Positions 5,849 through 31,303 are shown, numbered from the stretch's first letter. The stretch: DNA of 32,000 nucleotides from an uncultured archaeon (GCA_964595665.1 CAZQQS010000001.1:1-32000); one strand, 5' to 3'. Made by a program: numbers and translations. Notes: generated by a model from the letters alone, not told the origin.

Positions 5849-5850
5849 AT

Positions 5851-15425: not shown

Positions 15426-15434
15426 GGGATTATT

Positions 15435-16241: not shown

Positions 16242-16246
16242 ATAAT

Positions 16247-16507
16247 ATGGAAAATTACGATGTTTTGTTATATCCTTTAATATCTGAAAAAGCAGTAAAT
16301 GCTGTTGAAGCAGAAAATAAAATTACTTTTGTAGTAAAAAAAACTGCAACTAAACAAGATATTAAAAGAGCTTTAGAAGAAGCTTACAAGGTAAAAGTAG
16401 ATAGTATTAATATTTTAAATGCTACTGATGGAAGAAAAAAGGCAATAATTAAATTGAATAAACAATTTAAAGCAAGTGAATTGTCTAATAAGTTAGGTAT
16501 GGTATAA
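16247..16507 (+). CDS. rpl23: 50S ribosomal protein uL23
   Basis: 86 aa. LYPLISEKAVN...ITFVVKKTATKQDIKRALEEAYKVKV is typical of L23. Synteny agrees. Confidence 0.9.
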   Translation: MENYDVLLYPLISEKAVNAVEAENKITFVVKKTATKQDIKRALEEAYKVKVDSINILNATDGRKKAIIKLNKQFKASELSNKLGMV

Positions 16508-16517
16508 GGGTGAGAAT

Positions 16518-17237
16518 GTGAAGAGAATGAAGACACAAAGACGAGGAAAGGGTTCTCCAAGATATACTGCTAATAATGAGTCAGTAGGAAAGATATGTTA
16601 TTCTTTTAATTATACTCAAAATGCAATTTCAGGGGAAATAACAGATATACTACATAACGTAGGAAAATCTGCTCCATTAGCAAAAATTGTTTTAGAAAAT
16701 AATACTTCATTTTTTATTCCCGCTGGAGAAGGTTTCTTCGTAGGTTTAAAAATAAGTGCTGGATCTGGCGCTAACTTAAATTTAGGTAGTATTTTACCTA
16801 TTGGTCAAGTAAAACCCGGAACTCCCGTATATAATATTGAAAGTATTCCTGGTGATGGGGGCTCATTTTTTAGAGCTGGAGGTTCATTTGGTGAAGTAAT
16901 AACTTCAGATGACTCTGGTGTTTATATTAAAATGAAATCAGGAGTAAAAAGAAAAATTGATCCTAAAAGTTTATGTACTGTAGGTATAGTTTCTAATGGT
17001 GGAAGAACTATTAAACCATTTTATAAAGCTGGAAATAAGCATCACGCTATGAAAGCTAAAGGTGGAAGAATTTATCCTAGAGTAAGAGGTTATGCAATGA
17101 ACGCAGTAGATCATCCTCACGGAGGCTCGGGACACAATTCTCCGGGTAGACAAAAACCTGTTTCTAAGAAATTTGGTGCTCCTGGTCAAAAAGCTGGATT
17201 TATTGGTGCAAAGCAAACTGGAAGAAAGAAGAAGTGA
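16518..17237 (+). CDS. rpl2: 50S ribosomal protein uL2
   Basis: QRRGKGSPRY and the C-terminal MNAVDHPHGGSGH motif are present. The start could be GTG 16518 or ATG 16527. Confidence 0.92.
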   Translation: MKRMKTQRRGKGSPRYTANNESVGKICYSFNYTQNAISGEITDILHNVGKSAPLAKIVLENNTSFFIPAGEGFFVGLKISAGSGANLNLGSILPIGQVKPGTPVYNIESIPGDGGSFFRAGGSFGEVITSDDSGVYIKMKSGVKRKIDPKSLCTVGIVSNGGRTIKPFYKAGNKHHAMKAKGGRIYPRVRGYAMNAVDHPHGGSGHNSPGRQKPVSKKFGAPGQKAGFIGAKQTGRKKK

Positions 17238-17315
17238 TACTATATGGCTCAGTCAATAATTTTTGAAAACAGTAAAATTAATGACAGTTCCATAAAATTT
17301 AAAAGGTGAATATTT
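17238..17315 (+). repeat. Intergenic cassette, divergent copy (upstream of rps19)
   Basis: atggctcagtcaataatttttgaaaacagtaaaattaatgacagttccataaaatttaaaaggtgaatatttATGgct aligns over its whole length with the three near-identical copies. It contains a 21-codon mini-ORF at 17244-17309. Confidence 0.85.
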
Positions 17316-17711
17316 ATGGCTAAGGAATTTACTTATAGAGGTTTAAGTTGGGAAGAAGTTTTAAAATTAAAACCAACTGAATTAGAAAATGTTTTGGATG
17401 CAAGAGCAAGAAGAACTTTAAAAAGAGCTAAAGGCTTAGATAAAAGAGTTGTAAAAGCTATTGCTGAAAATACAGATGGTAAAGAAAGTTTTAAACCAGT
17501 TAAAACTCATAAAAGAGAAATATTAATAACTCCAGATATGGTTGGATTAAGATTTGCAGTTTATACTGGTAAAGAATTTATTACTTTAGGTATAACTAAA
17601 GAAATGATTGGTTTTTACTTAGGTGAATTTGTAGAAACAAGAAAAAGACCTAAACATAGTAAAGCTGGAATTGGTGCAACTAAATCATCAAAGCATGTAG
17701 GTAAGAAGTAG
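17316..17711 (+). CDS. rps19: 30S ribosomal protein uS19
   Basis: FTYRGLSWEEVLKL...KTHKREILITPDMVGLRFAVYTGKEF is typical of archaeal S19. Synteny agrees. Confidence 0.92.
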   Translation: MAKEFTYRGLSWEEVLKLKPTELENVLDARARRTLKRAKGLDKRVVKAIAENTDGKESFKPVKTHKREILITPDMVGLRFAVYTGKEFITLGITKEMIGFYLGEFVETRKRPKHSKAGIGATKSSKHVGKK

Positions 17712-17719
17712 GTGTGATT

Positions 17720-18466
17720 ATGGAATATTACAAAATTAAAGATAAAGACGCTGTAGCAAAATCTTTTAATTGCCCTATCTCTTTTAAATTTTCTGTTGAA
17801 ATGGCAAGAGAAGTTAAAAGTATGACTTACGAAAAAGCAATTAAGTTTTTAGAAGATGTAATTGCATTAAAAAGACCTTTACAATTAAAAAGATATAATA
17901 GAGATGTAGCTCATAGAAAAGGAAAAATTGGAGAAGTTAAATCTGGTAGATTCCCTGTAAAAGTTGCACAATATTTTAAAAAGGTTTTAGAAATTGCAAA
18001 AGCTAATGCAGATTATAAAGGATTAGATTCAAGTAAAAAAGATTTGATAGTTAAAGGTGCAGTTGTATCTCAAGGTGTAAAAAGATATAGTTATCAAACA
18101 CAAGGAAAAAGAAGATTAAGAAGAGATCAAACTACTAATATTGAAATAGTATTAACACAACAAGGTAAATTTGTTAAAAAAGCTGAAAAGAAAATAGCCA
18201 GTGCTTCTTTAGAATCAAAAGATTCAAAAAAATCACAGGTTGTTGAAAGCTCATCTAAAGATGCCGTTTCAACACAAGAAAAAAAAATTGTTGATGTAAC
18301 ACAAGATAAAAAATCTGTTGAAGTTAAAGAAGTAAAAGAAGTTAAAAAAGAAACAAAAAAAGCCAGTTCAACTTTAGAATCTAAAGATTCAAAAGCTAAA
18401 CAGGTTGTTGAAAGTTCTTCTAAAAAAGAAGCCGTTTCAACACAAGAGAAGAAAGGTAAAAAGTGA
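17720..18466 (+). CDS. rpl22: 50S ribosomal protein uL22 with a roughly 95-aa repeat-containing Lys/Ser/Glu-rich C-terminal extension
   Basis: The core (about the first 150 aa) matches L22 and the synteny fits. ATG 17720 follows AGGTGTGAT; the ORF-track start at 17714 is the GTG in the SD. The tail carries two copies of the SKDSK..QVVESSSK..AVSTQEK module. Confidence 0.88.
   Translation: MEYYKIKDKDAVAKSFNCPISFKFSVEMAREVKSMTYEKAIKFLEDVIALKRPLQLKRYNRDVAHRKGKIGEVKSGRFPVKVAQYFKKVLEIAKANADYKGLDSSKKDLIVKGAVVSQGVKRYSYQTQGKRRLRRDQTTNIEIVLTQQGKFVKKAEKKIASASLESKDSKKSQVVESSSKDAVSTQEKKIVDVTQDKKSVEVKEVKEVKKETKKASSTLESKDSKAKQVVESSSKKEAVSTQEKKGKK
18197..18283 (+). repeat. Tail repeat module, copy 1 (in rpl22)
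   Basis: Encodes ASASLESKDSKKSQVVESSSKDAVSTQEK. The stretch acaggttgttgaaagctcatctaaagatgccgtttcaacacaagaaaaa (49 nt) is identical to both copies in rps3. Confidence 0.9.
18362..18447 (+). repeat. Tail repeat module, copy 2 (in rpl22)
   Basis: Encodes ASSTLESKDSKAKQVVESSSKKEAVSTQEK. The first 53 nt (gccagttcaactttagaatctaaagattcaaaagctaaacaggttgttgaaag) are identical to rps3 copy 19246-19298. Confidence 0.9.
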
Positions 18467-18471
18467 TTTTA

Positions 18472-19467
18472 ATGATTGAGAAATTTTTCGTGAAACAAAG
18501 ATTTAAGAAATTAGATTTAGAAAAATTCTTTGCAAAAAGATTTTCAAAAGCTGGATTTAATAGTTTAGAAATTGTTAAAACTCCATTATCTACAAGATTA
18601 GTAGTTTCTGTTGCAAAACCAGGAATAGCTATTGGATATAGTGGAAAATCAATAAAAACTATTGGAAGTATTTTAGAAGATAAATTTGGAATAAAAAATC
18701 CACATATAGAAGTTAAAAGTGTTGAAGATCCAGATTATAATGTAAAATATATTGTTCAAAATATAGTTAGAGATTTAGAAAAAGGAATTAATTGGAAACA
18801 AGTTGCTTTTAGAGTAGTTAGAAGTTTATCTGATTTGCCAATTATGGGTTTTGAATTAATCTTTAAAGGAAAAATGATGTCTAAAGGTGGAAGAAAACAA
18901 AAATATAGATTTATTTCTGGATATTTAAAAACTATTGGAGATCAAACAAAATTAGTTAAATTTGCAATGGCTTCTGCATCAACAAAATCAGGAAGTATTG
19001 GAGTAAGATTAAAATTAGTTCCTCCTAATGTAATGTTCCCAGATAAAGTTGGAGAAAAAGAAATTAAAGAAGCTTTAGAAAGAATGAAAACAAAAGTTGT
19101 TATAGAAAAAATAGAAGATGGTAAAATAATAAAAGTTGAAGAAAAAGATATTAAAGAAATTAAAGCTGAAGTTAAAGTAGAAAAAAAAGCTGTTGAAGTT
19201 AAAGCAGTTAAAGAAGTAAAAGAAAAAAAGGTTACTGAAAAGAAAGCCAGTTCAACTTTAGAATCTAAAGATTCAAAAGCTAAACAGGTTGTTGAAAGCT
19301 CATCTAAAGATGCCGTTTCAACACAAGAAAAAGAAGTAAAAGAAAAAAAACCAAAAGTAAAAAAAGTAACTGAAAAAAAAGCCAATTTAGATTCAAAATC
19401 TAAACAGGTTGTTGAAAGCTCATCTAAAGATGCCGTTTCAACACAAGAAAAAGAGAGTGATAATTAA
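18472..19467 (+). CDS. rps3: 30S ribosomal protein uS3 with a long Lys/Glu/Ser-rich repeat-containing C-terminal extension
   Basis: The KH-domain N-terminus and the S3 core (GIAIGYSGKSIKTI, GFELIFKGKM) are present and synteny agrees. ATG 18472 follows AAGTGAT. The tail carries two copies of the module shared with rpl22. Confidence 0.9.
   Translation: MIEKFFVKQRFKKLDLEKFFAKRFSKAGFNSLEIVKTPLSTRLVVSVAKPGIAIGYSGKSIKTIGSILEDKFGIKNPHIEVKSVEDPDYNVKYIVQNIVRDLEKGINWKQVAFRVVRSLSDLPIMGFELIFKGKMMSKGGRKQKYRFISGYLKTIGDQTKLVKFAMASASTKSGSIGVRLKLVPPNVMFPDKVGEKEIKEALERMKTKVVIEKIEDGKIIKVEEKDIKEIKAEVKVEKKAVEVKAVKEVKEKKVTEKKASSTLESKDSKAKQVVESSSKDAVSTQEKEVKEKKPKVKKVTEKKANLDSKSKQVVESSSKDAVSTQEKESDN
19246..19331 (+). 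repeat. Tail repeat module, copy 3 (in rps3)
   Basis: Encodes ASSTLESKDSKAKQVVESSSKDAVSTQEK. Its 5' half is identical to rpl22 copy 2 and its 3' half is identical to rpl22 copy 1. Confidence 0.9.
19381..19451 (+). repeat. Tail repeat module, copy 4 (in rps3, 5'-truncated variant)
   Basis: Encodes ANLDSKSKQVVESSSKDAVSTQEK. A 54-nt stretch is identical to copy 3, offset by 120 nt. Confidence 0.9.
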
Positions 19468-19739
19468 TGACTAAAACAGCAAAAAAATATAGAGAATTAA
19501 GTATTACTGAATTAAAAGATAAAGTTAAAGAATTAAAAGAAAATTATTCTAAAGAAATTGTTAAAACAAAAACTGGTGCAAATAAAGAAAAAGCTTTTAA
19601 TTTAAGAAAAGCAAAAAAAGAAATTGCTACAGTATTAACAATTGCAAGAGAAAAAGAAATTAAACATGAAGAAGATAAATTAAAACCAAAAGTTAAGGTT
19701 GTAAAAGAAGTAAAAGAAAAGAAAGTTAAAAAAAAATAA
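19467..19739 (+). CDS. rpl29: 50S ribosomal protein uL29 with a Lys-rich C-terminal tail
   Basis: YRELSITELKDKVKELKENY is a typical L29 N-terminus. The start overlaps the rps3 stop (taATGa). The tail is KPKVKVVKEVKEKKVKKK. Confidence 0.88.
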   Translation: MTKTAKKYRELSITELKDKVKELKENYSKEIVKTKTGANKEKAFNLRKAKKEIATVLTIAREKEIKHEEDKLKPKVKVVKEVKEKKVKKK

Positions 19740-19751
19740 GGGGTTTATGAA

Positions 19752-20048
19752 ATGGTAGATATTTGTAATATCTGTGGTTTGCCGAAAGACATCTGCGTAT
19801 GTCAGAAAATGAATACAGAGCAAATTAAAATTTATGTTGTGGAAAAACACGTCAAAGGACCAATGTTTGTAACAATTGTAAATGGTTTAGATGATCTAAA
19901 CGAAATAGAGAACATGAATAAAGAGTTAAAGAAAAAGTTAGCTTGTGGTGGAACTTTAAAAAACAAAGATATTGTTTTGCAAGGAAAACATAAGAAAAAA
20001 GTAATTCTTTATTTAAAGGGGAAAGGATATGATACATTTCATCTCTAA
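19752..20048 (+). CDS. sui1: Translation initiation factor SUI1 (aSUI1/eIF1 homologue)
   Basis: An N-terminal Cys cluster (CNICGLPKDICVC) and KKKLACGGTLKNKDIVLQGKHKKKVILYLKGKGY are present. The position after L29 is conserved in many archaea. Confidence 0.85.
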   Translation: MVDICNICGLPKDICVCQKMNTEQIKIYVVEKHVKGPMFVTIVNGLDDLNEIENMNKELKKKLACGGTLKNKDIVLQGKHKKKVILYLKGKGYDTFHL

Positions 20049-20286
20049 AGATGTTTTAACTAAAGTTTTTTTAGGAAAAAAAATAAATGTTTTTTTTGCT
20101 AGCGATAAAACAAAACAAGTTAAAGGCATTGTACAAAAAGAGACAAAAAATATGTTTTATATTAAAACAGATAAAGGATTAAAAAAAATTCCTAAAAAGG
20201 AAATTTTCTTTTATTTGGATGATGAAAAAGTTGATGGAAAAACAATATGTTATAGATTAGCAGATAGAATAAAAAAATATGCTTAG
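20029..20286 (+). CDS. rnp1: RNase P protein component 1 (Rpp29/Pop4 homologue)
   Basis: LGKKINVFFASDKTKQVKGIVQKETKNMFYIKTDKGLKKIPKKEIFF matches the Rpp29 Sm-like core. The position between L29/SUI1 and S17 is canonical. Confidence 0.8.
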   Translation: MIHFISKDVLTKVFLGKKINVFFASDKTKQVKGIVQKETKNMFYIKTDKGLKKIPKKEIFFYLDDEKVDGKTICYRLADRIKKYA

Positions 20287-20296
20287 GTGATTAAAT

Positions 20297-20554
20297 ATGG
20301 TTGAATACCCAATAAGAGGAATTGTATTTGAAGGTGAAGTTGTAAGACAAAAAACTCCAAAAACAATTGTTGTAAAAAGAAATATTGTTACATATATTAA
20401 AAAGTATGAAAGAAATTTATTAAAAACTAAAAAGTATGCTGTGCATTTGCCAGAAAACATGACTGTAAAAGTTGGAGATAAAGTTTTAGTTGGAGAAACT
20501 AGAAAAATAAGTAAGACTAAGAATTTAGTTGTTATTGATGCTAATAAAAGGTGA
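20297..20554 (+). CDS. rps17: 30S ribosomal protein uS17
   Basis: GEVVRQKTPKTIVVKRN...KKYAVHLPENMTVKVGDKVLVGETRKISKTKNLVV is typical of S17. Synteny agrees. Confidence 0.92.
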   Translation: MVEYPIRGIVFEGEVVRQKTPKTIVVKRNIVTYIKKYERNLLKTKKYAVHLPENMTVKVGDKVLVGETRKISKTKNLVVIDANKR

Positions 20555-20559
20555 ATAAA

Positions 20560-20958
20560 ATGAGAGCGATGAGTTCAAAATCTATTAAAGGATTAATATT
20601 AAATTCCACTATGGAATGTACTGACAATACTGGTGCAAAAGAAGTATATATTATTAGTGTATTTGGACATAAAACAAGAAAAAAGCAAAATCCAAGTTCT
20701 GGTATAGGTGATTTAGTAAATATAGTTGTATCAAAAGGTAAACCAGAAATGAAAAAGAAATTATTTAGAGCAGTTATTGTAAGAAGTAAAAGTGGATTAA
20801 AAAGAGCTAACGGTGTTAAATTAAAATTTGATACTAATGCTTGTGTTTTAGTAGATAATGAAGGCGTTCCAAAATCAACTGAAGTAAAAGGTGCAGTTCC
20901 AAGAGAAGTTGGTGAAAGATTTCCAAAAATAGTTGGTAGAGCTGCATACGTAGTATAG
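20560..20958 (+). CDS. rpl14: 50S ribosomal protein uL14
   Basis: ECTDNTGAKEVYIISV... and the C-terminal REVGERFPKIVGRAAYVV are present. ATG 20560 follows AAGGTGAATAAA; the ORF-track start at 20551 is the GTG in the SD. Confidence 0.92.
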   Translation: MRAMSSKSIKGLILNSTMECTDNTGAKEVYIISVFGHKTRKKQNPSSGIGDLVNIVVSKGKPEMKKKLFRAVIVRSKSGLKRANGVKLKFDTNACVLVDNEGVPKSTEVKGAVPREVGERFPKIVGRAAYVV

Positions 20959-21041
20959 AGGGATATTTATGGTTCAGTTAAAAGTTTTTAAAAACAGTAA
21001 AACTTATAACAGTCCCACAAACATATAAAAGGTGAATATTT
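20959..21041 (+). repeat. Intergenic cassette copy (upstream of rpl24)
   Basis: gagggatatttATGgttcagttaaaagtttttaaaaacagtaaaacttataacagtcccacaaacatataaaaggtgaatattt. The palindrome GTTTTTAAAAAC is at 20984-20995. The mini-ORF is at 20969-21028. Confidence 0.9.
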
Positions 21042-21392
21042 ATGGTTACAAAAAACGCATCTAAAAATAGAGTTAGACAATTGAATGCACCAAAACATAC
21101 TTTAAGAAAAAGTATTGCATCACATGTATCTAAAGAATTAAGAGCAAAATATAATATAAGAGCAATATCTATTAGAAAAGGGGATGTTGTTACAATTATG
21201 ACTGGTAAATTTGCAAAAAAATCTGGAAAAGTTACTACTGTAGATTCTACAGGATTTATATTTATAGAAAATATTCAATTGAATAAAAAAGATGGAAAAG
21301 TTGTTCCAATAAAAATAAATCCATCAAATGTAATTATTACTGAATTATATAAAGATGATGAAAAAAGATTTAAACATATTAAAGGTGAATAA
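21042..21392 (+). CDS. rpl24: 50S ribosomal protein uL24
   Basis: The KOW motif is IRKGDVVTIMTGKFAKKSGKV. Synteny agrees. Confidence 0.92.
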   Translation: MVTKNASKNRVRQLNAPKHTLRKSIASHVSKELRAKYNIRAISIRKGDVVTIMTGKFAKKSGKVTTVDSTGFIFIENIQLNKKDGKVVPIKINPSNVIITELYKDDEKRFKHIKGE

Positions 21393-21394
21393 AT

Positions 21395-22096
21395 ATGGCA
21401 AATAAAGGTAATAGTAATCGCCAAAAAAGAGTGAGTTACGCTGGTAAAGCAAGAATAAGTAGAAAAGAACATCATTGGACATTTAATGCAAAACCTGGAG
21501 CACACCCAAAAAATGAGAGTGCTTGTTTTGGTTTGATAATTAGAGATGTATTAAATTTAGCTAATAATACTAAAGAAGTAAAATATATTTTAAATAACAA
21601 AAATTGTTTTGTTAATGGTGTTAGAGTAAAAGAACATAGATTGCCTGTAGGTTTATTTGATATTTTATCATTTAAAGATATTAAAAAATATAGAGTATTA
21701 TTAACACATAAAGATAAAATTATTTTAAAAGAAGTTAATGAAAAGGAAAATTTAATTCCTTGTAGTGTAAAAACTAAAAAACCACATGCAAAAGACAAAT
21801 TTGTTTTGGGTTTTTCAAATGGATTTACATCTATTGTAAAAGATACTAAAATTAATGTTGGAGATTCTGTATTGTATAATATAGATAAAAAAACATTTGA
21901 AGATGTAGTTGTTAAACAACCAGGTGCAAGAGTATATATTATTGGTGGACCGCACGTAAGTTCTTTTGGTATATTGAAAAATATTATTAAAGGAGATTTA
22001 AAAAAATCAAGTGAAGTTACAGTTGATTGTAGTGGTAAAGAATTGAAAACAATGGAAAAATATATTTTTGTAATTCCTGAAAAATTGAATTTATAA
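21395..22096 (+). CDS. rps4e: 30S ribosomal protein eS4
   Basis: HHWTFNAKPGAHPKNESACFGLIIRDVL...VNGVRVKEHRLPVGLFDILSF is typical of S4e. Synteny agrees. Confidence 0.92.
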   Translation: MANKGNSNRQKRVSYAGKARISRKEHHWTFNAKPGAHPKNESACFGLIIRDVLNLANNTKEVKYILNNKNCFVNGVRVKEHRLPVGLFDILSFKDIKKYRVLLTHKDKIILKEVNEKENLIPCSVKTKKPHAKDKFVLGFSNGFTSIVKDTKINVGDSVLYNIDKKTFEDVVVKQPGARVYIIGGPHVSSFGILKNIIKGDLKKSSEVTVDCSGKELKTMEKYIFVIPEKLNL

Positions 22097-22106
22097 AGTG
22101 ATACTT

Positions 22107-22625
22107 ATGGCTGAAAAACAAAATCCAATGAAAGAAATTTCTTTAGAAAAAGTTGTGTTGCATATTTGTACTGGAGAAACTGGTGTAAAATTAGATAACG
22201 CTAAAAAAATATTAAATTTGTTAACTAATAAAAAACCTGTTGAAACAAAATCAAAAACTAAATTGCCAAAATGGGGTTTACGTCCTGGATTAGCAATTGG
22301 TGCAAAAGTAACTTTAAGAAATAAACAAGCTTATGAATTTTTAAAAAGAGCTTTGGAAGCAAAATCATTTACATTAAATAAAAGATGTATTGATAAAACA
22401 GGAAATTTTGCATTTGGTATTCCAGAATATATTGATATTAAAGGAATGAAATATGATCCTAAAATGGGAGTTTTTGGATTTGATGTTATTTCATCTTTAA
22501 AGAGAAATGGTTTTAGAATTAAATATAGAGCTGAAAAAAGAATGAAATTAACACCTGCTTTAAAAATTAATAAAGAAGAAGCAGAAGAATTCTTGAAGAA
22601 AGAATTTAATATAAAATTTAATTGA
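22107..22625 (+). CDS. rpl5: 50S ribosomal protein uL5
   Basis: NPMKEISLEKVVLHICTGE and GNFAFGIPEYIDIKGMKYDPKMGVFGFDV are present. ATG 22107 follows AAGTGATACTT. Confidence 0.92.
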   Translation: MAEKQNPMKEISLEKVVLHICTGETGVKLDNAKKILNLLTNKKPVETKSKTKLPKWGLRPGLAIGAKVTLRNKQAYEFLKRALEAKSFTLNKRCIDKTGNFAFGIPEYIDIKGMKYDPKMGVFGFDVISSLKRNGFRIKYRAEKRMKLTPALKINKEEAEEFLKKEFNIKFN

Positions 22626-22774
22626 TGGTGATATGCTTGAAAATGAAAGATGATAAGAAGCTAACTTGTAAGATTTGCGGATGTGGAAAGGCAATCGTTA
22701 GAAAATATGACTTAAATGTTTGTCGTAGATGCTTTAAAGACCATGCCGAAGAGTTAGGCTTTCATAAATATTAG
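22625..22774 (+). CDS. rps14: 30S ribosomal protein uS14 (zinc-binding type); missing from the ORF track
   Basis: My own translation gives (MVICLK)MKDDKKLTCKICGCGKAIVRKYDLNVCRRCFKDHAEELGFHKY*, with CxxC...CxxC and the conserved RKY..LCR.CFR..A..LGF.KY pattern. The start is ATG 22625 (overlapping the rpl5 stop) or ATG 22643. Confidence 0.88.
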   Translation: MVICLKMKDDKKLTCKICGCGKAIVRKYDLNVCRRCFKDHAEELGFHKY

Positions 22775-22782
22775 GTGATTAT

Positions 22783-23172
22783 ATGAGTAGAGATCCTTAT
22801 ACTGATGCATTAACTCACATAAAAAATAGTGATTTTGTTGCAAAACAAAGTTGTTCTATTAATATATCGAGTACTTTGCTTTTGAAAACTTTAGAGATAT
22901 TAAAAGCTGAAAAATATATTGATAATTTTGAGTTAAAAACAAAAAGTAATAAACAAGAATTGACTGTAAAGTTAAATGGTTCATTAACAAATTTAAAATC
23001 TGTTAAACCAAGATATCCAATCGGTTATAACGATATGGAAAAATATGAAAAAAGATATTTACCATCAAGAAATGTTGGACTATTAATTTTATCTACACCA
23101 CAAGGTTTGCGAACACATGTTGAAGCAAAAAAAGAAAAGATTGGTGGAAGATTAATAGCATTTGTATATTAG
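22783..23172 (+). CDS. rps8: 30S ribosomal protein uS8
   Basis: DPYTDALTHIKNSDFVAKQ and the C-terminal GGRLIAFVY are present. Synteny agrees. Confidence 0.92.
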   Translation: MSRDPYTDALTHIKNSDFVAKQSCSINISSTLLLKTLEILKAEKYIDNFELKTKSNKQELTVKLNGSLTNLKSVKPRYPIGYNDMEKYEKRYLPSRNVGLLILSTPQGLRTHVEAKKEKIGGRLIAFVY

Positions 23173-23181
23173 GTGACATTT

Positions 23182-23712
23182 ATGAAATTAGAAATCAATA
23201 TACCAAAAGGAACTAATGTTACAAAAGATAATAATTATATTGTTGTTAAAGGTAAATTAGGAGAATTAAGAAAAGAGTTCAAAACTAAATTAATTAATAT
23301 TAATATAGATTCTGATAAATTGGTTTTGGAAAGTGTTAATGATAGAACAAAAACAGTTGCAATTTTGAATACTGTAAATTCTATAATAAGTAACATGATT
23401 TCTGGAACTGAGAAAAAATATGTTTATACTTTAAGAGGAGTATATTCACACTTCCCATTAACATTAGCTGTTAAAGGAAAAACATTTGTAATAAATAATT
23501 ATTTGGGTGAAAAAAAATCAAGAGTTATTGATATTCCAGATAATGTTGAGATAACTGTTAAAGGAAAAGATGTTATTGTAAAATCAATTGATAAAAATTT
23601 AGCAGGAACTGTTGCTGGATTAATTGAAAATAGTGTAAAGCCAAAAAATAGAGATAGAAGAATATTTCAAGATGGCGTATATATAATTACAAAAGGTGTG
23701 CAAGATGAGTAA
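23182..23712 (+). CDS. rpl6: 50S ribosomal protein uL6
   Basis: The two-domain L6 pattern is present (VKGKLGELRKEF, YSHFPLTLAVKG). ATG 23182 follows AGGTGACATTT. Confidence 0.9.
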   Translation: MKLEINIPKGTNVTKDNNYIVVKGKLGELRKEFKTKLININIDSDKLVLESVNDRTKTVAILNTVNSIISNMISGTEKKYVYTLRGVYSHFPLTLAVKGKTFVINNYLGEKKSRVIDIPDNVEITVKGKDVIVKSIDKNLAGTVAGLIENSVKPKNRDRRIFQDGVYIITKGVQDE

Positions 23713-24064
23713 TGAAAAAAAAGTACCTACATTTAGAGGAAGATTTGGAACACGAAGTAAAAGAAAGAAATCTATTGCTAAATGGGATAAATGGAGATTT
23801 CCTAGAGGAATTGATATTACTTTCAAGAAAGGAGATAATGAAAATCCAAAAATTGGTTATGGTACTAAGAAAGAAGATAGAGATTTACATCCTTCTGGAA
23901 GAACTGAAGTATATATTAGAAATTTAGATATTTTAAAAAATCACGTTAAAGAAAATAAAGATGCAAATAAATATATTTATAGATTAGCAGGAAATTTAGG
24001 TGCTAAAAAAAGATTAGATATAAAAGAATTTGCAAAAACTGTAAAAATAAGAATAATAAATTAA
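23705..24064 (+). CDS. rpl32e: 50S ribosomal protein eL32
   Basis: FRGRFGTRSKRKKSIAKWDKWRFPRGIDI...HPSGRTEVYIRN is typical of L32e. ATG 23705 follows AAGGTG. Confidence 0.9.
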   Translation: MSNEKKVPTFRGRFGTRSKRKKSIAKWDKWRFPRGIDITFKKGDNENPKIGYGTKKEDRDLHPSGRTEVYIRNLDILKNHVKENKDANKYIYRLAGNLGAKKRLDIKEFAKTVKIRIIN

Positions 24065-24074
24065 AGGTGTTGGT

Positions 24075-24506
24075 ATGAACATTAAATCTGCAAAGAGAAT
24101 AGTTGCGAAAAAATTAAATGTTGGAAAATCTAAAATTAAAATAAATAATGATTCGCAAAAGAAAATTAAAGAAGCAATTACAAGTGCTGATTTAGAAACT
24201 TTGGTACAAGATGGATCTTTTAAAAAGAAAGGTCAAAGTCAAAGTAGAGGTAGAGCTCGAGTATTATTGGAAAAGAAAAAGAAAGGTAGAAGAACTGGCC
24301 AAGGTACAAGAAGAGGAAAAGCAAATGCAAGAGCAAGTACTCATGATGCTTGGATAAAAAAAGTAAGAGCTCAAAGAAAATATATTTTAGAATTATTAAC
24401 TAATACAAAAGTTGATAAAAAACAATATAGAGATTTGTACAACAAAGTTAAAGGTGGATTCTTTAGAAGTAAAAGCCACATAGATTCATATCTGAGTAAA
24501 AAATAG
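24075..24506 (+). CDS. rpl19e: 50S ribosomal protein eL19
   Basis: KRIVAKKLNVGKSKIKIN..., the basic middle region RRTGQGTRRGKANAR and WIKKVRAQRKYI are present. Synteny agrees. Confidence 0.9.
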   Translation: MNIKSAKRIVAKKLNVGKSKIKINNDSQKKIKEAITSADLETLVQDGSFKKKGQSQSRGRARVLLEKKKKGRRTGQGTRRGKANARASTHDAWIKKVRAQRKYILELLTNTKVDKKQYRDLYNKVKGGFFRSKSHIDSYLSKK

Positions 24507-24515
24507 GGGATTTTT

Positions 24516-24995
24516 ATGGCAATATTTAGAAGACGAAAAGAACTAAAAACAAACTATGATAAAAGATTTTCATTGTTAAAATCTAGGACTAACAGATTGG
24601 TTTTGAGAATAACAAATCAATATGTTTGGGCACAATATGTTGTACACGATACAAAAGGGGATATAAACAAATTAAGTTTAGTTTCAAAATCTTTGAAAGA
24701 TTTTGGTTGGACTTTAGGATTTAAATCTTTGCCAGCAAGTTATCTTTCAGGATATTTGTTTGGTAAAAAAGCTTTAGAAGCAAAATTATCTAAAGATATG
24801 ATTTTAGATTTAGGTTTACAAAAATCTTTTAAACAAGGTAGGATTTATTCATTTGTAAAAGGTGCAATAGATTCTGGATTAAATATCCCTGTTGAAAAAG
24901 AAGTTTTGCCAACTCAAGAAAGACTTGAAGGAAAACATATTAAATCTGAAGCTTTGTTTAAGAAAGTAAAAGATGCAATTGATGCTAAAAAGTGA
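24516..24995 (+). CDS. rpl18: 50S ribosomal protein uL18
   Basis: FRRRKELKTNYDKRFSLLKSRTNRLVLRITNQYVWAQ is typical of archaeal L18. Synteny agrees. Confidence 0.9.
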   Translation: MAIFRRRKELKTNYDKRFSLLKSRTNRLVLRITNQYVWAQYVVHDTKGDINKLSLVSKSLKDFGWTLGFKSLPASYLSGYLFGKKALEAKLSKDMILDLGLQKSFKQGRIYSFVKGAIDSGLNIPVEKEVLPTQERLEGKHIKSEALFKKVKDAIDAKK

Positions 24996-25000
24996 TATAT

Positions 25001-25756
25001 ATGGTTGATAAATTTAAATTAGCTAAAAAGAAATCAGTAAAGAGAGCTGAATATGGTAGAGTATCTGAAGAAAAAACTACTAAAATGGAAACAAAAGAAG
25101 CAATTCAAGATGCTGTTCATAAAAAAAGAGCAAAAAGATCTTTATTTAATGTTGATATTTCAACATGGGAACCTAAGACTTTATTGGGTAAAAAAGTAAA
25201 AGAAGGCGAAATAACTAGCTTGGATGAAATTTTTGATAAAAATTTAAAAATTTTAGAACCAGAAATAATAGACTTTTTTATACCTGATATAAGAGAAAAA
25301 TTAATGGATACTACAAAAACATCATACGTTAGAATGTCTGGTAGAAAATATAACTACAGATGTGTTGTATTATTAGGTGATGGAGTAAAATTCATTGGTA
25401 TGGGAATAGGTAAAGATAAAGATAAATGGGTTTCAGCAACAAAAGCTGCAAGAATAGCTAGATTAAATTTATTAAGAATAAAAAAAGGTTGTGGAAGTTG
25501 GGAATGTTTATGTGGTACAGAACACACAGTACCTTTTGAAGTTCAAGGAAAAACTGGTGCTGCAAGAATTACATTAATTCCAGCTCCTTTAGGAACAGGA
25601 TTAGTAATAAGTGATTCTTTAAAACCAATATTGGAATTTGTAGGAATAAAAGATGTTTGGAGTAGAACTGAAGGTGAAACAGGTACTATGATAAATAGTA
25701 TACAAGCCACAATAGATGCTTTAAGCGAAACTAATAAAAAATTAAAAGTTAGGTGA
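25001..25756 (+). CDS. rps5: 30S ribosomal protein uS5 (with a basic N-terminal extension)
   Basis: The core is YNYRCVVLLGDGVKFIGMGIGKDKD... ITLIPAPLGTGLV. ATG 25001 follows AAGTGATATAT. Confidence 0.9.
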   Translation: MVDKFKLAKKKSVKRAEYGRVSEEKTTKMETKEAIQDAVHKKRAKRSLFNVDISTWEPKTLLGKKVKEGEITSLDEIFDKNLKILEPEIIDFFIPDIREKLMDTTKTSYVRMSGRKYNYRCVVLLGDGVKFIGMGIGKDKDKWVSATKAARIARLNLLRIKKGCGSWECLCGTEHTVPFEVQGKTGAARITLIPAPLGTGLVISDSLKPILEFVGIKDVWSRTEGETGTMINSIQATIDALSETNKKLKVR

Positions 25757-25762
25757 TATTAA

Positions 25763-26230
25763 ATGTCTGAATTAATTGCAATCGTAAAAATAAGAGGTAG
25801 TGTTGGAATAAAAACTACTTTAAAAGATACTTTATTAAAGTTAAGATTGAGTGAAAATAATCATTGTACTATTTTTGAGAATTCAAAAGTTTTACAAGGA
25901 ATGTTATTTAAAGTTAAGGATTATATTTCTTATGGTACAATAGATAAAGAAACATTAAAAGCTTTGATTGCAAAAAGAGGAAGATTAGTTGGCGATAAAA
26001 GAATTAATGCTGAATTTTTAAAAGAAAAAAATTTAACTATGGATAAATTTGTTGAAATGTTTATTGAAGATCCTAAGAAAGCATATACTTTAGGTTTGAA
26101 AAGAGTTTTTAGATTAAGTCCGCCATCAAAAGGTTTTGAAAGAAAAGGAATAAAAACTCCATTTGCACTAGGTGGTGCTTTAGGAGATAGAAAAGAAAAA
26201 ATAAATGTTCTTTTGAAGAAAATGATGTGA
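25763..26230 (+). CDS. rpl30: 50S ribosomal protein uL30
   Basis: LIAIVKIRGSVGIKTTLKDTLLKLRL is typical of L30. Synteny agrees. Confidence 0.9.
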   Translation: MSELIAIVKIRGSVGIKTTLKDTLLKLRLSENNHCTIFENSKVLQGMLFKVKDYISYGTIDKETLKALIAKRGRLVGDKRINAEFLKEKNLTMDKFVEMFIEDPKKAYTLGLKRVFRLSPPSKGFERKGIKTPFALGGALGDRKEKINVLLKKMM

Positions 26231-26306
26231 TATTTATGGTTCAGTTAAAAGTTTTTAAAAACAGTAAAACTTATAACAGTCCCATAAAAAATAAATGGTG
26301 ATATTT
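26231..26306 (+). repeat. Intergenic cassette copy (upstream of rpl15)
   Basis: tatttATGgttcagttaaaagtttttaaaaacagtaaaacttataacagtcccataaaaaataaatggtgatattt. The mini-ORF at 26236-26301 ends at the TGA inside the GGTGA of the rpl15 SD. Confidence 0.9.
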
Positions 26307-26717
26307 ATGGTTGTTAGAAAAGAAAAAAGATGTAAAAAAAGATTAGGTACTAGAACAAGAGGTGCTGGTAATACTGAAAACAGAAGAGGTGCTGGAAGTA
26401 AAGGTGGAAAAGGTAATACTGGAAAATTCGGTCATAAAAAACATGAATTTTTTGATGTTATAGGTCACAAAGTAAAAAATAAAGCATTTGTTGAAACTGT
26501 TGGAATTAATTTCAATCATATTAATAATTATATTGAGAATTTAATCTTACAAGGTAAAAAAGAACCTTTTGAATTAGATTTCAAACATAAAGATTTGAAA
26601 AAATATAATAAAGTTTTATCAAAAGGAAAATTGAAATATAATGTAATATTAAAAAATGTAATATTGACTGAAAGAGCTAAAAAACAAGTTGAATCTAAAG
26701 GGGGTTCATTTGAATGA
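26307..26717 (+). CDS. rpl15: 50S ribosomal protein uL15
   Basis: RKEKRCKKRLGTRTRGAGNTENRRGAGSKGGKGNTG is a typical L15 N-terminus. ATG 26307 follows GGTGATATTT. Confidence 0.9.
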   Translation: MVVRKEKRCKKRLGTRTRGAGNTENRRGAGSKGGKGNTGKFGHKKHEFFDVIGHKVKNKAFVETVGINFNHINNYIENLILQGKKEPFELDFKHKDLKKYNKVLSKGKLKYNVILKNVILTERAKKQVESKGGSFE

Positions 26718-28117
26718 GTTTTGCAAATATAATTGCAGGAATATCTCAATTTATTCCAAGTATTCAAGCTCCTAAGGAAAAACCTATTTTGTCTCAAAGA
26801 TTAAAATACAGTTTTTTAGTATTGTTAATATTCTTTGTTTTAGGTACAATTCCTTTATTTGGATTGGCTGGAAGTGCTGGTGACAGTTTAGCAATGTATC
26901 AATTGTTATTAGCAAGTAATATTGGAACATTATTAACTGTTGGAATTGGTCCTATAGTTGTAGCATCAATTATATTACAATTATTAGTTGGTACTGGAAT
27001 ATGGGGTTTAGATTTTGGAAATCCAAATGATAGAGCTTTATTTTCAAGTACTCAAAAAATATTGGCAATTATATTGTCTTTTTTAGAAGCATTTATTTAT
27101 GTAAGTGTTGGATTCTTAAAAACAGAAACTGCATTATTTACTTTCTTAGTAGTTTTGCAAGTTGCATTAGGTTCAATTACTTTATTATACTTAGATGAAG
27201 TTATACAAAAATATGGTATTGGTTCAGGAATAAGTTTATTTATTGCTGGAGGAGTAGCTTCTGGAATATTCTGGGTAATATTTAATCCAGTAAGTTCAAT
27301 ACAACAAGGTTTACAAATATTAAGTTCTGGTGCAACATTTAGTTTAGCTACTGGTGCTGGTTTATTGTGGACTTTTTTTGCAAATGTAGGTCAAAATTTA
27401 TATACTGCAGTAGTACAAAATATCTTCCCAATATTGTTTGCAATAATAGTATTTTTCATAGTAATTTATTTCTCAGGAATACATGTAAATATTCCATTAA
27501 CTATGGGTAAGAGTTCGCAGTTAGGAAGATATCCTGTAAAGTTTTTTTATGTTAGTAACTTGCCAGTAATTTTGGCAGCAGCATTATTTGCAAATATAAC
27601 TTTATTATATCATGTAGTGGAAGCAAAATCAATTCCAGTATTAACTACAATTTTATTTTATATTAGTAAATATACTACATCTCCAAATAATTTAGTAGAA
27701 AATGTTTTTTTACAAGGTTTTTCTGGAATGTGGGGACAAATATTACAAGCAATAATTTATTTGATAATATTTGCATTTGTTTGTGTATTCTTTGGAATCA
27801 TGTGGGTTAAAATGGCTGGACAAGATTCAGAAAGTGTTGCAAAACAATTACAAAAAAGTGGAATGTTTTTACCAGGATTTAGAAGAGATCCTAGAGTTAT
27901 AAAAACAGTTTTAGATAGATATATTCCTACTATAACAATATTAGGTGCAATATCAGTAGCTCTATTAGCGGGATTAGCAAGTATTACTGGTGCTGTAGGA
28001 ACAGGAATGGGAATATTGTTAACTGTTGATATTGTATATAGATTATATGAAGAAATTGCTAAAGAACAAGTAAGTACAGATTCATCATTATTGGCAAAAT
28101 TAGTTGCAAAAAGGTGA
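26714..28117 (+). CDS. secY: Protein translocase subunit SecY
   Basis: About 10 TM segments. It sits directly after rpl15 with a 4-nt overlap. SecY-like segments include GIGPIVVASIILQLL and ITLLYLDEVIQKYGIGSGISLFI. Confidence 0.92.
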   Translation: MSFANIIAGISQFIPSIQAPKEKPILSQRLKYSFLVLLIFFVLGTIPLFGLAGSAGDSLAMYQLLLASNIGTLLTVGIGPIVVASIILQLLVGTGIWGLDFGNPNDRALFSSTQKILAIILSFLEAFIYVSVGFLKTETALFTFLVVLQVALGSITLLYLDEVIQKYGIGSGISLFIAGGVASGIFWVIFNPVSSIQQGLQILSSGATFSLATGAGLLWTFFANVGQNLYTAVVQNIFPILFAIIVFFIVIYFSGIHVNIPLTMGKSSQLGRYPVKFFYVSNLPVILAAALFANITLLYHVVEAKSIPVLTTILFYISKYTTSPNNLVENVFLQGFSGMWGQILQAIIYLIIFAFVCVFFGIMWVKMAGQDSESVAKQLQKSGMFLPGFRRDPRVIKTVLDRYIPTITILGAISVALLAGLASITGAVGTGMGILLTVDIVYRLYEEIAKEQVSTDSSLLAKLVAKR

Positions 28118-28121
28118 ATGT

Positions 28122-28571
28122 ATGGAATGGCTAAATGCATTTATAGTTGGAACTATTGCAATTGTTTATTCTGCATTTTTATTTTTATATCAAAGATATC
28201 AAGATAAAAAAAATAATACTAAAGAAAAAAATTTAAAATCAAAAGAATTACAAAAACAAATCTCAGATTTGTATAAAAACAAAGATGTTAAAGATCCAGA
28301 AGTTATGAAAGAAATTCAAGCTTTACAAAAAGAAATGATGAGCATTAGTATAGATATGATGAAATCACAATTTAAAGGTATGATTTGGATTATGCTTTTA
28401 GGATTAATTGTATTATCTGTAATAGGATTATTCCAAGATGCGAAATTTCCTGTTGGAAGTTTTTGGATATTTTCACAAGTGTTATCTTGGTTTATATTAA
28501 TATCTTTAGTTGCAAATTTGTTATACAAAGGAATATTTAAATTATTAGAAAAACAAAAATTAATTAAATGA
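28122..28571 (+). CDS. DUF106 / EMC3-TMCO1-like membrane protein (archaeal YidC/Oxa1-like family)
   Basis: The layout is TM1, then a Lys/Glu-rich coiled segment (KELQKQISDLYKNK...MKEIQALQKEMMSISIDMMKSQFKGM), then two more TM segments. The position downstream of secY is conserved in archaea. ATG 28122 follows AAGGTGAATGT. Confidence 0.6.
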   Translation: MEWLNAFIVGTIAIVYSAFLFLYQRYQDKKNNTKEKNLKSKELQKQISDLYKNKDVKDPEVMKEIQALQKEMMSISIDMMKSQFKGMIWIMLLGLIVLSVIGLFQDAKFPVGSFWIFSQVLSWFILISLVANLLYKGIFKLLEKQKLIK

Positions 28572-28662
28572 TGTTTAAAAGGTGAAATTATGGTTCAGTT
28601 AAAAGTTTTTAAAAACAGTAAAACTTATAACAGTCCCACAAATATGTAAAAGGTGAATATTT
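28572..28662 (+). repeat. Intergenic cassette copy (upstream of rpl34e)
   Basis: tgtttaaaaggtgaaattATGgttcagttaaaagtttttaaaaacagtaaaacttataacagtcccacaaatatgtaaaaggtgaatattt. The mini-ORF is at 28590-28649. Confidence 0.9.
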
Positions 28663-28986
28663 ATGGTTACTCCAGCACAGAGAAATATGAAAAAGAAATT
28701 TGTAAAAGTTACAAAAGGTACTAAAGAAGTTAGATTTAGAGATAAATCAAAAGGTGCACATTGTGCTACATGTAAAACTGCATTACAAGGTGTTCCAAGA
28801 AATGTTGCAAAATTAGCAAAAACTGAAAAGAGACCAAGTGTTTTATTTGGTGGATTATTATGTTCTAAATGTAGAGATGAAGTTTTTGATTATGCAATTA
28901 TGGTTAAATTAAATTTAGTTCCTGAAAGCGAAATTTCATTTAAAATAAAAAAATATGTTGATCAAGCAATTTTGAAAATTGCATAG
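28663..28986 (+). CDS. rpl34e: 50S ribosomal protein eL34
   Basis: HCATCKTALQGVPR...KTEKRPSVLFGGLLCSKCRDEVF is the L34e zinc-ribbon pattern. Confidence 0.88.
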   Translation: MVTPAQRNMKKKFVKVTKGTKEVRFRDKSKGAHCATCKTALQGVPRNVAKLAKTEKRPSVLFGGLLCSKCRDEVFDYAIMVKLNLVPESEISFKIKKYVDQAILKIA

Positions 28987-28994
28987 GTGATTAT

Positions 28995-29447
28995 TTGATT
29001 GTTGTTATTGCAGGAGATGTTTCTTATAACGTAGAACCCTTTGCTAAAAAATTAGCAATTAGTTTAGGTGCAATATATAAACAATTAGATGATGATTATT
29101 TATTAAAAAATACTGGGTTCTTTGAAGAACAAAAACAAGGTAAGATTGTATATGTTGGGCATGTAATTGCAACAAAATTACAAGTACCATGTTTTAAAAT
29201 ATTTTTAAAAGAATTAAAAGAAAATATTTTAAGTAGATTAGTAAAAGAAAATAAATTATCTATTGAAGATGCAAATGAAAAATATAATTCAATAGTTAAA
29301 GAACAAAAAGAAAAAATGAATCGATTTTATGGAATCGATATAAATAATTTAGAAGTTTATGATTTAATAATGAGAATTGATAATTTAGATCAAAAATCAA
29401 TAATTAGTATTATTGAAAAGTTTATTGCAAAGCAATTTAGTGAATGA
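28995..29447 (+). CDS. cmk: Archaeal cytidylate-kinase-like protein with a degenerate P-loop
   Basis: The position between L34e and L14e is where archaeal cmk normally sits. The C-terminal RFYGIDINNLEVYDLIMRIDNL matches archaeal Cmk. The N-terminal IVVIAGDVSYNVEPFAKKLA replaces the expected GxxGxGK[ST]. The TTG start follows AGGTGATTAT. Confidence 0.6.
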   Translation: MIVVIAGDVSYNVEPFAKKLAISLGAIYKQLDDDYLLKNTGFFEEQKQGKIVYVGHVIATKLQVPCFKIFLKELKENILSRLVKENKLSIEDANEKYNSIVKEQKEKMNRFYGIDINNLEVYDLIMRIDNLDQKSIISIIEKFIAKQFSE

Positions 29448-29455
29448 GGGATATT

Positions 29456-30261: not shown

Positions 30262-30273
30262 TAGGTGATATTT

Positions 30274-30900
30274 ATGGGTGATCCAAAAAAAATTAGAAAG
30301 AAGTATGATAAACCAAAAAGACCTTGGGATAAGTCTAGAATTGTTTTAGAAAAAGATTTATTATTAAAATATGGTTTAGTTTCTAAAAAAGAATTAAGAA
30401 TTATGGAAGGAATTATTGGTAAAAAAAGAGCAACAGTTAAAAATTTATTAACTGCTCCTCAAGAAGTTGCTGAAAAAGGAAGACAAGAATTAGTATCTTC
30501 ATTAAATAAAATAGGATTGGTTTCAAAAGATGCAACATTCACAGATATTTTAGGATTAACTGTTCAAGATATATTAGAAAGAAGATTACAAACTATAGTA
30601 TATAGAATGGGTTTAGCAACTACTGTAAAACAAGCAAGACAATTTATTACACATGGTTTAATTGTAATAAATGGTAGAAGAATAACTATTCCAAGTTATA
30701 TAGTTACATCTGATGAAGAAAAAGCAATAGGTTATTTTGGAAATAAAAAACCAAAGATTTTAGAATTGGAAATGAAAAAACCAGAATTGCATAAAACTGC
30801 TAAAACAGAGTCAAAAGTTGTAGATGAAAAAACTGAAGAATTAGTTGATGAAGTTTTAGAAGATAACGAAGTAGAAGTTATTGAAGAAGAGAGTGATTAA
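30274..30900 (+). CDS. rps4: 30S ribosomal protein uS4 with an acidic C-terminal tail
   Basis: GDPKKIRKKYDKPKRPWDK and the S4 domain LERRLQTIVYRMGLATTVKQARQFITHGLIVINGRRI are present. The tail is EELVDEVLEDNEVEVIEEESD. ATG 30274 follows AGGTGATATTT. Confidence 0.9.
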   Translation: MGDPKKIRKKYDKPKRPWDKSRIVLEKDLLLKYGLVSKKELRIMEGIIGKKRATVKNLLTAPQEVAEKGRQELVSSLNKIGLVSKDATFTDILGLTVQDILERRLQTIVYRMGLATTVKQARQFITHGLIVINGRRITIPSYIVTSDEEKAIGYFGNKKPKILELEMKKPELHKTAKTESKVVDEKTEELVDEVLEDNEVEVIEEESD

Positions 30901-30901
30901 A

Positions 30902-31285: not shown

Positions 31286-31303
31286 ATAGGATATGGGGAT
31301 TTT

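Follow-up and report, generated by a model that had tools for sequence, protein, structure and literature searches.

The window and its repeated cassette

We analysed a stretch of 32,000 nt of DNA from an uncultured archaeon (GCA_964595665.1 CAZQQS010000001.1:1-32000; hereafter the window), which has a GC content of 25.6% and carries on its plus strand the archaeal L3-to-S11 ribosomal-protein supercluster, as judged from the table of open reading frames (ORFs) and from Pfam matches. Searches with S4e and S11 place it among the DPANN archaea annotated Candidatus Diapherotrites. The cluster is tightly packed. From rpl3 (14430) to rps11 (end 31285) the junctions are overlaps or short gaps, and the only ones longer than about 18 nt are those before rps19, rpl24, rpl15 and rpl34e (by Pfam, S19, L24 (Ribosomal_L26), L15 (L27A family) and L34e), as an original prediction made from the same DNA had stated. 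Each of these four gaps holds one copy of a cassette of 71-73 nt, which is the subject of this report.

The prediction that one repeated sequence occupies all four gaps was borne out. A 43-nt core, CAGTTAAAAGTTTTTAAAAACAGTAAAACTTATAACAGTCCCA, occurs exactly three times (at 20975, 26242 and 28596; 0 expected, 100 shuffles), and a repeat search of the window gathered all four copies into one family. The first copy is the divergent one; said to align at about 75% identity, it is 66% identical to the reference copy ungapped over 83 nt, and about 78% identical over the interior when gaps are allowed. As had been described, CAGT occurs at element positions 7, 27 and 42, the sequence at 20984-20995 is the palindrome GTTTTTAAAAAC, and the copies end alike in AAAAGGTGAATATTTATGG. 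The gaps hold the repeat but are not pure cassette, as the first bases of each are the native Shine-Dalgarno (SD) sequence and spacer of a displaced start. An assembly artefact, which had been named as a danger, is ruled out because two assemblies made independently of each other, JGI 3300037067 and Logan SRR11845623, give copy 1 and its flanks with not one base different. Homologous cassettes are also present in unrelated ENA, JGI and NCBI assemblies, and the length of a cassette is below that of one sequencing read.

Copies in relatives were found with an nhmmer profile hidden Markov model and a covariance model (CM), R1. The counts given below refer to about 250 kb of related loci, rich in ribosomal-protein genes, which are designated by L numbers.

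Structure of the cassette

The repeat itself had been recognised correctly; what had been overlooked is a hairpin, a segment complementary to the start region, a doubled SD-ATG and a mini-ORF running from the old ATG. We call the SD, spacer and ATG together the translation-initiation region (TIR), and the segment complementary to the SD-ATG region the anti-TIR. Each unit runs from the old native TIR through a CAG-hairpin-CAG core, an anti-TIR and an A-rich linker to a second TIR, at which the real gene starts. The 5' end of the cassette reads ATGG(Y)T, with an SD-like sequence before it, and the 3' end reads GGTGA(A)TATTT, followed by the gene's own ATGG(Y)T. The TIR, being present twice, forms a direct repeat around the insert, and an intact SD and ATG are always kept by the downstream gene.

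The core has the form CAG-GTYR-n-7 bp / loop / 7 bp-n-YRAC-AG, and folding predicts a hairpin of about 11 bp in every copy; the CAG flanks and an A.A mismatch are conserved. In a CM alignment of 19 copies, standard pairs make up 84% of the cells; sliding the 3' partner lowers the figure to 41-46%. Changes on both sides are seen in 9 of the 19 pairs, and the observed covariation was reached by none of 500 shuffles, for an alignment that was itself fitted to the structure. The structure was given by hand and the copies were realigned with the CM, as RNAalifold on the first MAFFT alignment, with its misplaced loop indel, gave none. Between cassette 1 and cassettes 2-4 three stem pairs differ, all of them compensated. 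The counts of G.U and A.C in the inner stem (4 versus 6 cells) do not separate pairing as RNA from pairing as DNA, and the folding energies of the window cassettes are unexceptional (z -1.5 to +0.4).

The predicted duplex of the anti-TIR with both TIRs has an energy of -6.4/-6.9 kcal/mol (-3.6/-3.8 when shuffled), and in the minimum-energy fold of cassette 1 the anti-TIR is paired with the new TIR, that is, with the real start. The anti-TIR also varies with unusual local TIRs: GGAATGATTATG occurs with CATAATATTCC at L7Ae, ATTTTTATG with CATAAAAAT at L18, and TAAATG with CATTTA at the S4 site of L056. A design in which the old start would be hidden and the new one left open is unsupported by equilibrium pairing probabilities, which give no difference in predicted accessibility between the old and the new TIR (p = 0.5).

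The cassettes also have a consequence for annotation, as gene callers begin rpl15 in the window and L7Ae in L004 within a cassette. For rpl15 the ORF lister gives a start at 26295, within the cassette SD, and the real start is 26307, from which the conserved N-terminus runs; in the L004 contig, L7Ae is called at L054 18644, inside the cassette, and its conserved N-terminus begins at L054 18752.

Filled and empty sites in related genomes

In the closest relatives, L003 and L009 (S4e 82% identical), the four window sites are tight and empty (12, 10, 0 and 22 nt), and pairwise alignment with the window gives a clean indel at each of them. Comparison with these empty sites identifies the left TIR as native at S19 (the empty rps19 site of L009 is AGAAGTGATATATT-ATGGCT) and at L24, and at L34e it is the right-hand tail that matches the native L003 leader. 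The sole run of Ns in L009 (16700-17247), a scaffold gap, falls exactly upstream of rpl34e; the site is empty in the sister contig L003. A second pair is provided by the S4e site, filled in L024 and empty in L023 (S4e 83% identical), and the L006 and L055 loci have no cassette at all.

The family comprises 28 copies: 4 in the window, 14 in L004/L054 (an ENA contig, S4e 59%), 3 in L012, 1 in L011, 3 in L019, 1 in L024 and 2 in L056. Those of L004/L054 occupy S19 (twice), L29, L24, S8, L18 (twice), L34e (twice), S4, S2 (twice), L7Ae and S28e. L012 is filled at S19, L24 and L34e, L011 at L24, L019 at S19, S4e and, with a degenerate copy, L34e, and L024 at S4e, while the more distant L056 has divergent copies at S4 and S2. 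S19 and L34e are recurrent sites, each filled in four lineages. Cassette 1 is identical in L001 and L002. Besides the source genome, the lineages that bear cassettes include those of ENA ERZ27251151 k141_560684, PEXK01, JGI Ga0172370 and GCA_030154545.1.

The original prediction had asked how copies in relatives lie with respect to start codons. All 28 stand directly 5' of a ribosomal-protein gene, in the orientation of that gene, and 12 gene families are concerned. Matches on the minus strand either overlap plus-strand copies or come from a single copy in which the core alone is inverted. In the sampled loci no copy precedes SUI1, RNase P p29, secY, the EMC3-like gene, cmk, rpoD, rpoN or enolase, and none precedes IleRS, DUF1003, aIF2 or the 17 non-ribosomal window ORFs upstream. 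Were sites chosen at random among the sampled families, the chance that 12 of 12 occupied families would be ribosomal-protein families is about 0.008 to 0.0001. The exact core pattern had no match in genome, metagenome and viral contig collections, all of them without the source genome, and a looser family pattern, run against viral contigs only, had none either.

In L019 the gap before rpl34e (17400-17593) measures 190 nt. In it a start region is directly joined to an anti-TIR-like string, ATGGCCAATCGATAAATTTC, possibly a coreless cassette; the end of a degenerate cassette and a hairpin of another kind, GTCAGAAGCTCTTGCGAATAGCAAGCCGATTCTGAC, are also present.

Duplication and proposed spread

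Each cassette is closest to its paralogues within the same genome, and not to the cassettes that fill the corresponding site in another genome. Concerted evolution or a small mobile or duplicative element, both left open by the original prediction, agree well with this clustering by genome and with the alternation of filled and empty sites among relatives. The L004 copies are built of modules, three core types and four tail types, which have been recombined. Tandem pairs are present there at S19, L18, L34e and S2; the tandem units at S2 and L18 have a common tail of 33-34 nt and different cores. One S2 unit of L004 has an inverted core, and degenerate copies also exist. The flanking direct repeats of the local TIR are exact over 4-18 nt (median 11), and some are idiosyncratic (AGGAGGAATGATTATGC at L7Ae, AAGGTGATTAAATG in L056).

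In the window, cassettes 2 and 4 have the same tail, which matches the native rpl34e leader of L003 (in cassette 4, AAATATGTAAAAGGTGAATATTT). This match suggests that the cassette may have been born at rpl34e and then copied to rpl24. Cassette 3 has the core of cassettes 2 and 4, but has a tail that is almost the same as its own left flank, with an exact direct repeat of 15 nt (GTGATATTTATGGTT). Many ribosomal-protein genes, those of cassette-free genomes included, have the consensus TIR RGTGA(A)TATTTATG(G), and homology is therefore available for the copying of cassettes.

Judged by these comparisons of sequence, the cassette is a lineage-restricted repeat family, duplicative and homogenising, and not a fixed regulatory site; its palindromic units span 55-83 nt and are found in a Diapherotrites-like DPANN group. 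A spreading repeat is to be preferred to a fixed promoter because relatives hold more copies or none. Our reading, which we hold with about even confidence, is that a duplicative palindromic cassette spreads from one start region to another, these being nearly identical, and that it is tolerated since it regenerates the start signal, so that the downstream gene is left with an intact SD and ATG. New copies would come chiefly from gene conversion or unequal recombination, that is, from copying which relies on the homology between the TIRs of ribosomal-protein genes, and a copy could be cleanly lost by recombination between its flanking repeats. Recombination from TIR to TIR would fit the mosaics and the differing lengths of the repeats. 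The copier may instead be an enzyme that recognises the hairpin, which would agree with the conservation of CAG-hairpin-CAG and with the subfamilies whose stems are compensated. Once in place, the element would be co-transcribed within the polycistronic mRNA, the old start codon would become the head of a short decoy ORF, able to pair with the anti-TIR, and the gene would be translated from the new TIR.

Such an element would be largely neutral, at most modulating coupling and mRNA stability, and would not be a required site. The non-coding block upstream of rpl3 (14286-14365) offers a contrast, as it is nearly identical in all the lineages compared, cassette-free ones too. This is how a required cis-element behaves, and the cassette is unlike it.

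Several points weigh against the spreading cassette as we read it. That 12 of 12 occupied families are ribosomal-protein families would fit a dedicated regulatory role as well, and the sampling is confined to loci rich in such genes. A purely neutral element would be expected to decay, but old divergent copies such as cassette 1 hold perfect stems by compensation, and the anti-TIR tracks the unusual TIRs of L7Ae, L18 and L056-S4. For recombination, 10-20 nt of homology is little. The reading explains the origin neither of the first copy nor of the anti-TIR, and movement is deduced from differences between genomes, not from polymorphism within one population.

Alternative explanations

The original prediction had also left room for a shared RNA operator. 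Part of this stands, in that the hairpin covaries and every copy precedes a ribosomal-protein gene, but the distribution is patchy, which argues against the cassette being necessary. In its full form, which we consider rather unlikely, the hairpin and the anti-TIR would make up a translational RNA switch placed before many ribosomal-protein cistrons. With the anti-TIR on the old TIR, the new TIR would be free and the gene on; with the anti-TIR on the new TIR, the gene would be off. The balance would be set by a common factor or by the ribosome finishing the upstream cistron, resulting in regulon-wide control of ribosomal proteins, and duplicative spread would be the way in which the regulon grows. 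The strictly sense orientation of the 28 copies before 12 ribosomal-protein families, the covarying stem, the retention of the CAG...CAG flanks and of the mismatch, and the filling of the S19 and L34e sites in four lineages each all speak for such a switch. So do the complementarity of the anti-TIR to both TIRs, unusual local ones included, and the TIR/anti-TIR/TIR layout, which allows two exclusive pairings, seen in the predicted folds, one of them (that with the real start) being the minimum-energy fold of cassette 1. However, the nearest relatives, L006 and L055 run the same operons cassette-free, the occupied sites vary among genomes, and tandem, degenerate and core-inverted copies occur. 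The loop sequences are unconserved, no difference is predicted in the accessibility of the two TIRs, the folding energies in the window are ordinary, and the consensus TIR that ribosomal-protein genes share also explains why the cassettes are restricted to them. A further reading is a self-propagating portable translational control module, one RNA operator (CAG-hairpin-CAG with the anti-TIR) that copies itself onto ribosomal-protein start regions; we regard this as improbable. A classical non-autonomous transposon, such as a MITE (a miniature transposable element with inverted repeats) or an element of the repetitive extragenic palindromic (REP) or PATE type, is in our view a quite unlikely explanation. 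Its transposase would be encoded elsewhere, for example as an HUH enzyme of the IS200/IS605 or RAYT type (RAYTs being the transposases associated with REPs), and would read CAG-hairpin-CAG as single-stranded DNA and insert the core beside ..TTTATG(G). The imperfect palindrome with conserved flanking trinucleotides and mismatch, the insertion always next to one short sequence, the tandem reinsertion at a regenerated target and the phylogenetic patchiness are in its favour, as are the subfamilies with compensated stems, which are expected if an enzyme reads the hairpin. On the other hand, no transposase was found in the window, in the fetched flanks or in about 150 kb of related loci. Moreover, the flanking repeats are not of fixed length, the left boundary is blurred (1-3 variable bases before CAG), tails are swapped independently of cores, no copy in the sampled loci lies off a start site or in opposite orientation, and the REP tags GTAG and CGTC are absent.

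The internal promoter that had been proposed, with the AT palindrome as TATA box and starts about 25 nt before rps19, rpl24, rpl15 and rpl34e, is not supported, and we think it very improbable. In the window a TATA-like AAAAGTTTTTAAAAAC does lie about 52 nt before each ATG, and the S19 and L34e junctions do recur as sites. Yet the palindrome GTTTTTAAAAAC is simply the top of the stem with the loop, and it is seen in this genome only: the loops of L004, L012, L019 and L024 read, for example, CTTTCGTTTAAGCA or TTGCAGGTGTTCG, with no TATA-like box, while the stem is kept, and the middle CAGT is a loop feature specific to the window. AT-rich strings are ubiquitous at 25.6% GC, and the region upstream of the operon has a strongly conserved TATA-like block of its own, TATATTATTAATA. 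The related proposal, that a reiterated promoter or operator partitions the cluster into units, is not supported either, in that the closest relatives run the same operon, in the same gene order, with none of the four cassettes. Almost no credence can be given to a small protein or leader peptide as the function, although all four window copies have an open frame from the old ATG (MVQLKVFKNSKTYNSP..), with its own SD, of 19-21 codons and stopping in or 2 nt before the new SD, and three copies elsewhere have similar frames (L004 S19-2, L004 L34e-1 and L012 S19). In 11 of 25 copies a difference of 1 nt before CAG cuts the frame to 4 codons; frames that end close to the real ATG (<=16 nt) number 6 of 25, against 4.5 expected from shuffles; and the similarity of the peptides is mere similarity of DNA. 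The mini-ORF as a product was rejected, the ORF being unconserved and long frames not enriched. Motifs of C/D-box small RNAs, k-turns, bulge-helix-bulge structures and hammerheads were absent, both by eye and with Rfam. A retroposon-like origin, with an A-rich tail and variable duplications, was dropped because the A-rich stretch is the normal context before an SD in these genomes and because the tails match native leaders.

Relation to known elements

The Rfam 15 covariance models had no match at E <= 1 in window positions 14000-32000, and in L004, L054, L012 and L019 they matched tRNA only. No description of an equivalent element was found in the literature searched; a MITE review and a MITE census treat archaeal and DPANN MITEs in general terms only. 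We class the cassette as a small palindromic repeat, the closest kinds being REPs and bacterial interspersed mosaic elements (BIMEs), co-transcribed MITEs (Correia, ERIC) and Rickettsia palindromic elements (RPEs).

With REPs and BIMEs it shares the short imperfect palindrome, the many copies, the position between operon genes, co-transcription and subfamilies with compensated stems. Those elements are mobilised by RAYT transposases and are known to affect both the stability of mRNA and the translation of a neighbouring cistron. REPs differ in being G+C-rich, 20-40 nt long, marked by a GTAG/CGTC tag, present in both orientations and located after stop codons, with no duplication of an SD-ATG; the cassette has CAG at both ends, A+T-rich stems, an archaeal host and no GTAG/CGTC, and the window has no RAYT gene. 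The Correia elements (NEMIS) of Neisseria and the ERIC sequences (intergenic repeat units, IRU) of enterobacteria are similar in being non-coding, about 100 nt long, intergenic and transcribed, with long inverted-repeat arms; their presence varies between strains and they can alter the expression of the downstream gene. They differ by a fixed target duplication (TA for Correia) and follow no rule of orientation, start codon or gene class, whereas the repeat flanking the cassette is the whole start region, with its variable 4-18 nt, and a working start is always restored. As in MITEs generally, there are terminal inverted repeats, since one long imperfect palindrome runs from the old TIR (..TTTATGG) via the core to the anti-TIR (CCATAAA..). 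The direct repeats lack the fixed length of a target-site duplication. Presence varies between relatives; in the ribosomal-protein regions, for which dispersal was assessed, every unit is at a start site and in gene orientation.

RPEs are a precedent for palindromic repeats that are tolerated at normally lethal positions because the host gene stays expressible (review PMC10969869). They lie in-frame inside coding regions and are translated, whereas the cassette lies before the coding region and replaces the start signal. The autoregulatory mRNA leaders of ribosomal proteins (for example the L1, L4, S4 and S8 operators, and the leaders in Rfam) are also RNA structures at cistron starts that can occlude the SD and start codon; each serves one operon, mimics an rRNA site and has a fixed, conserved locus, unlike this one sequence family, which stands before 12 genes, is missing in close relatives and has no Rfam match. 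Integron attC sites, also imperfect palindromes (57-141 nt), stand between genes of one orientation and have a GTT...AAC stem base and conserved unpaired bases. The stem base of the cassette is GTYR...YRAC, but the RYYYAAC/GTTRRRY cores are unmatched, the ribosomal-protein neighbours are syntenic and no integrase is nearby. Compared with an ermC-type leader-peptide attenuator, the ORF is unconserved, and the alternative pairing is possible but unbiased. An archaeal promoter with a B recognition element and TATA box is not matched, the TATA-like string being confined to the copies of the window.

Feature coordinates and other observations

Table 1. Cassettes and start regions in the window (positions counted from its first nucleotide)
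Feature	Position	Strand	Details	Basis or comparison
Old native TIR of rps19, heading cassette 1	17230..17249	+	AGAAGTGATACTAT-ATGGCT	Matches the empty L009 site
Cassette 1, divergent	17244..17315	+	72 nt, beginning with the old ATG and ending one base short of the rps19 ATG	CM R1, 75.7 bits
Decoy mini-ORF of cassette 1	17244-17309	+	MAQSIIFENSKINDSSIKFKR	
Core hairpin of cassette 1	17250..17287	+	CAG-TCA-a-TAATTTT / loop / AAAATTA-a-TGA-CAG	Predicted in every fold
Anti-TIR of cassette 1	17290..17296	+	CCATAAA, complementary to TTTATGG of the start region	Duplex energies
New TIR of rps19	17302..17321	+	AAAGGTGAATATTT-ATGGCT	SD GGTGA at 17305-17309; rps19 ORF from 17316
Old TIR of cassette 2	20955-20974	+		Same as the empty L003 site up to the ATG
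Cassette 2, before rpl24	20969..21041	+	73 nt	CM, 86.8 bits
Parts of cassette 2			Core 20975-21012; anti-TIR 21015-21021; SD 21031-21035	
Cassette 3, before rpl15	26236..26306	+	71 nt	
Parts of cassette 3			Core 26242-26279; anti-TIR 26282-26288; SD 26297-26301	
Cassette 4, before rpl34e	28590..28662	+	73 nt	
Parts of cassette 4			Core 28596-28633; anti-TIR 28636-28642; SD 28652-28656	
Unoccupied consensus TIR of rps4	30262..30279	+	AGGTGATATTTATGGGT	Site cassette-filled in L004 and L056

The non-coding block mentioned above, which is strongly conserved and stands some 65-145 nt upstream of rpl3 (window 14256-14365, with its core as already given), reads TATATTATTAATA..TTGAGTTGGGACTCAGAT..TCGATTTCTTGATTTCAAG(Y)AATT. 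It has two small hairpins and no Rfam match, and is also found at L009 3354, L004 2681, L012 281 and L019 2564, being nearly identical where S4e is only 52-59% identical. It is probably the promoter of the operon together with a leader RNA element. Between the TYW1 gene and rpl3 (13570-14213) are two small overlapping ORFs of 99 and 115 aa, the second with a weak match to ParE-like toxins, which are absent from the same interval of L009; they look like an inserted toxin-antitoxin pair.

Further upstream lie, in this order, a 1094-aa ORF without Pfam match (223-3507), the ORF of an AAA_14/DUF4143 ATPase (3563-4846) and five small ORFs without matches (4885-6531). Within the supercluster, rpl22 (250 aa) and rps3 (334 aa), at 17714-19467, have long, repetitive C-terminal tails rich in lysine and glutamate (repeat families D1 and D3-D7), and tail lengths vary among relatives (rps3 290-334 aa). 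The junction between rpl34e and cmk, 8 nt in the window, measures 115-157 nt in three of the more distant lineages, L004 (18186-18302), L055 (8027-8144) and L056 (3020-3177); the long form does not hold a cassette, and that of L004 matches no Rfam family. A tRNA gene (RF00005, 52 bits) lies at L054 11225-11307, between rpoD-like ORFs and rpl18e.

Implications

Small palindromic repeats are common in bacteria but, to our knowledge, little known in archaea, and we know of almost nothing on them in DPANN. The occupancy of start sites, the strict orientation, the regeneration of SD and start codon and the complementary segment are properties of which we found no description, either in Rfam or in the literature that was searched. 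So far the cassette has been seen only before ribosomal-protein genes, within the most conserved gene cluster of the cell. Should the improbable portable control module prove true, many ribosomal-protein cistrons would come under common post-transcriptional control, and the regulon, assembled by a mobile RNA element, would be a convergent archaeal counterpart of the eukaryotic 5' terminal oligopyrimidine (5'TOP) motif. The cassette shows that an essential, tightly packed operon can be colonised by an element without harm, and its filled and empty sites form a natural series in which the effects of intercistronic distance, decoy start codons and hairpins on archaeal translational coupling may be compared.

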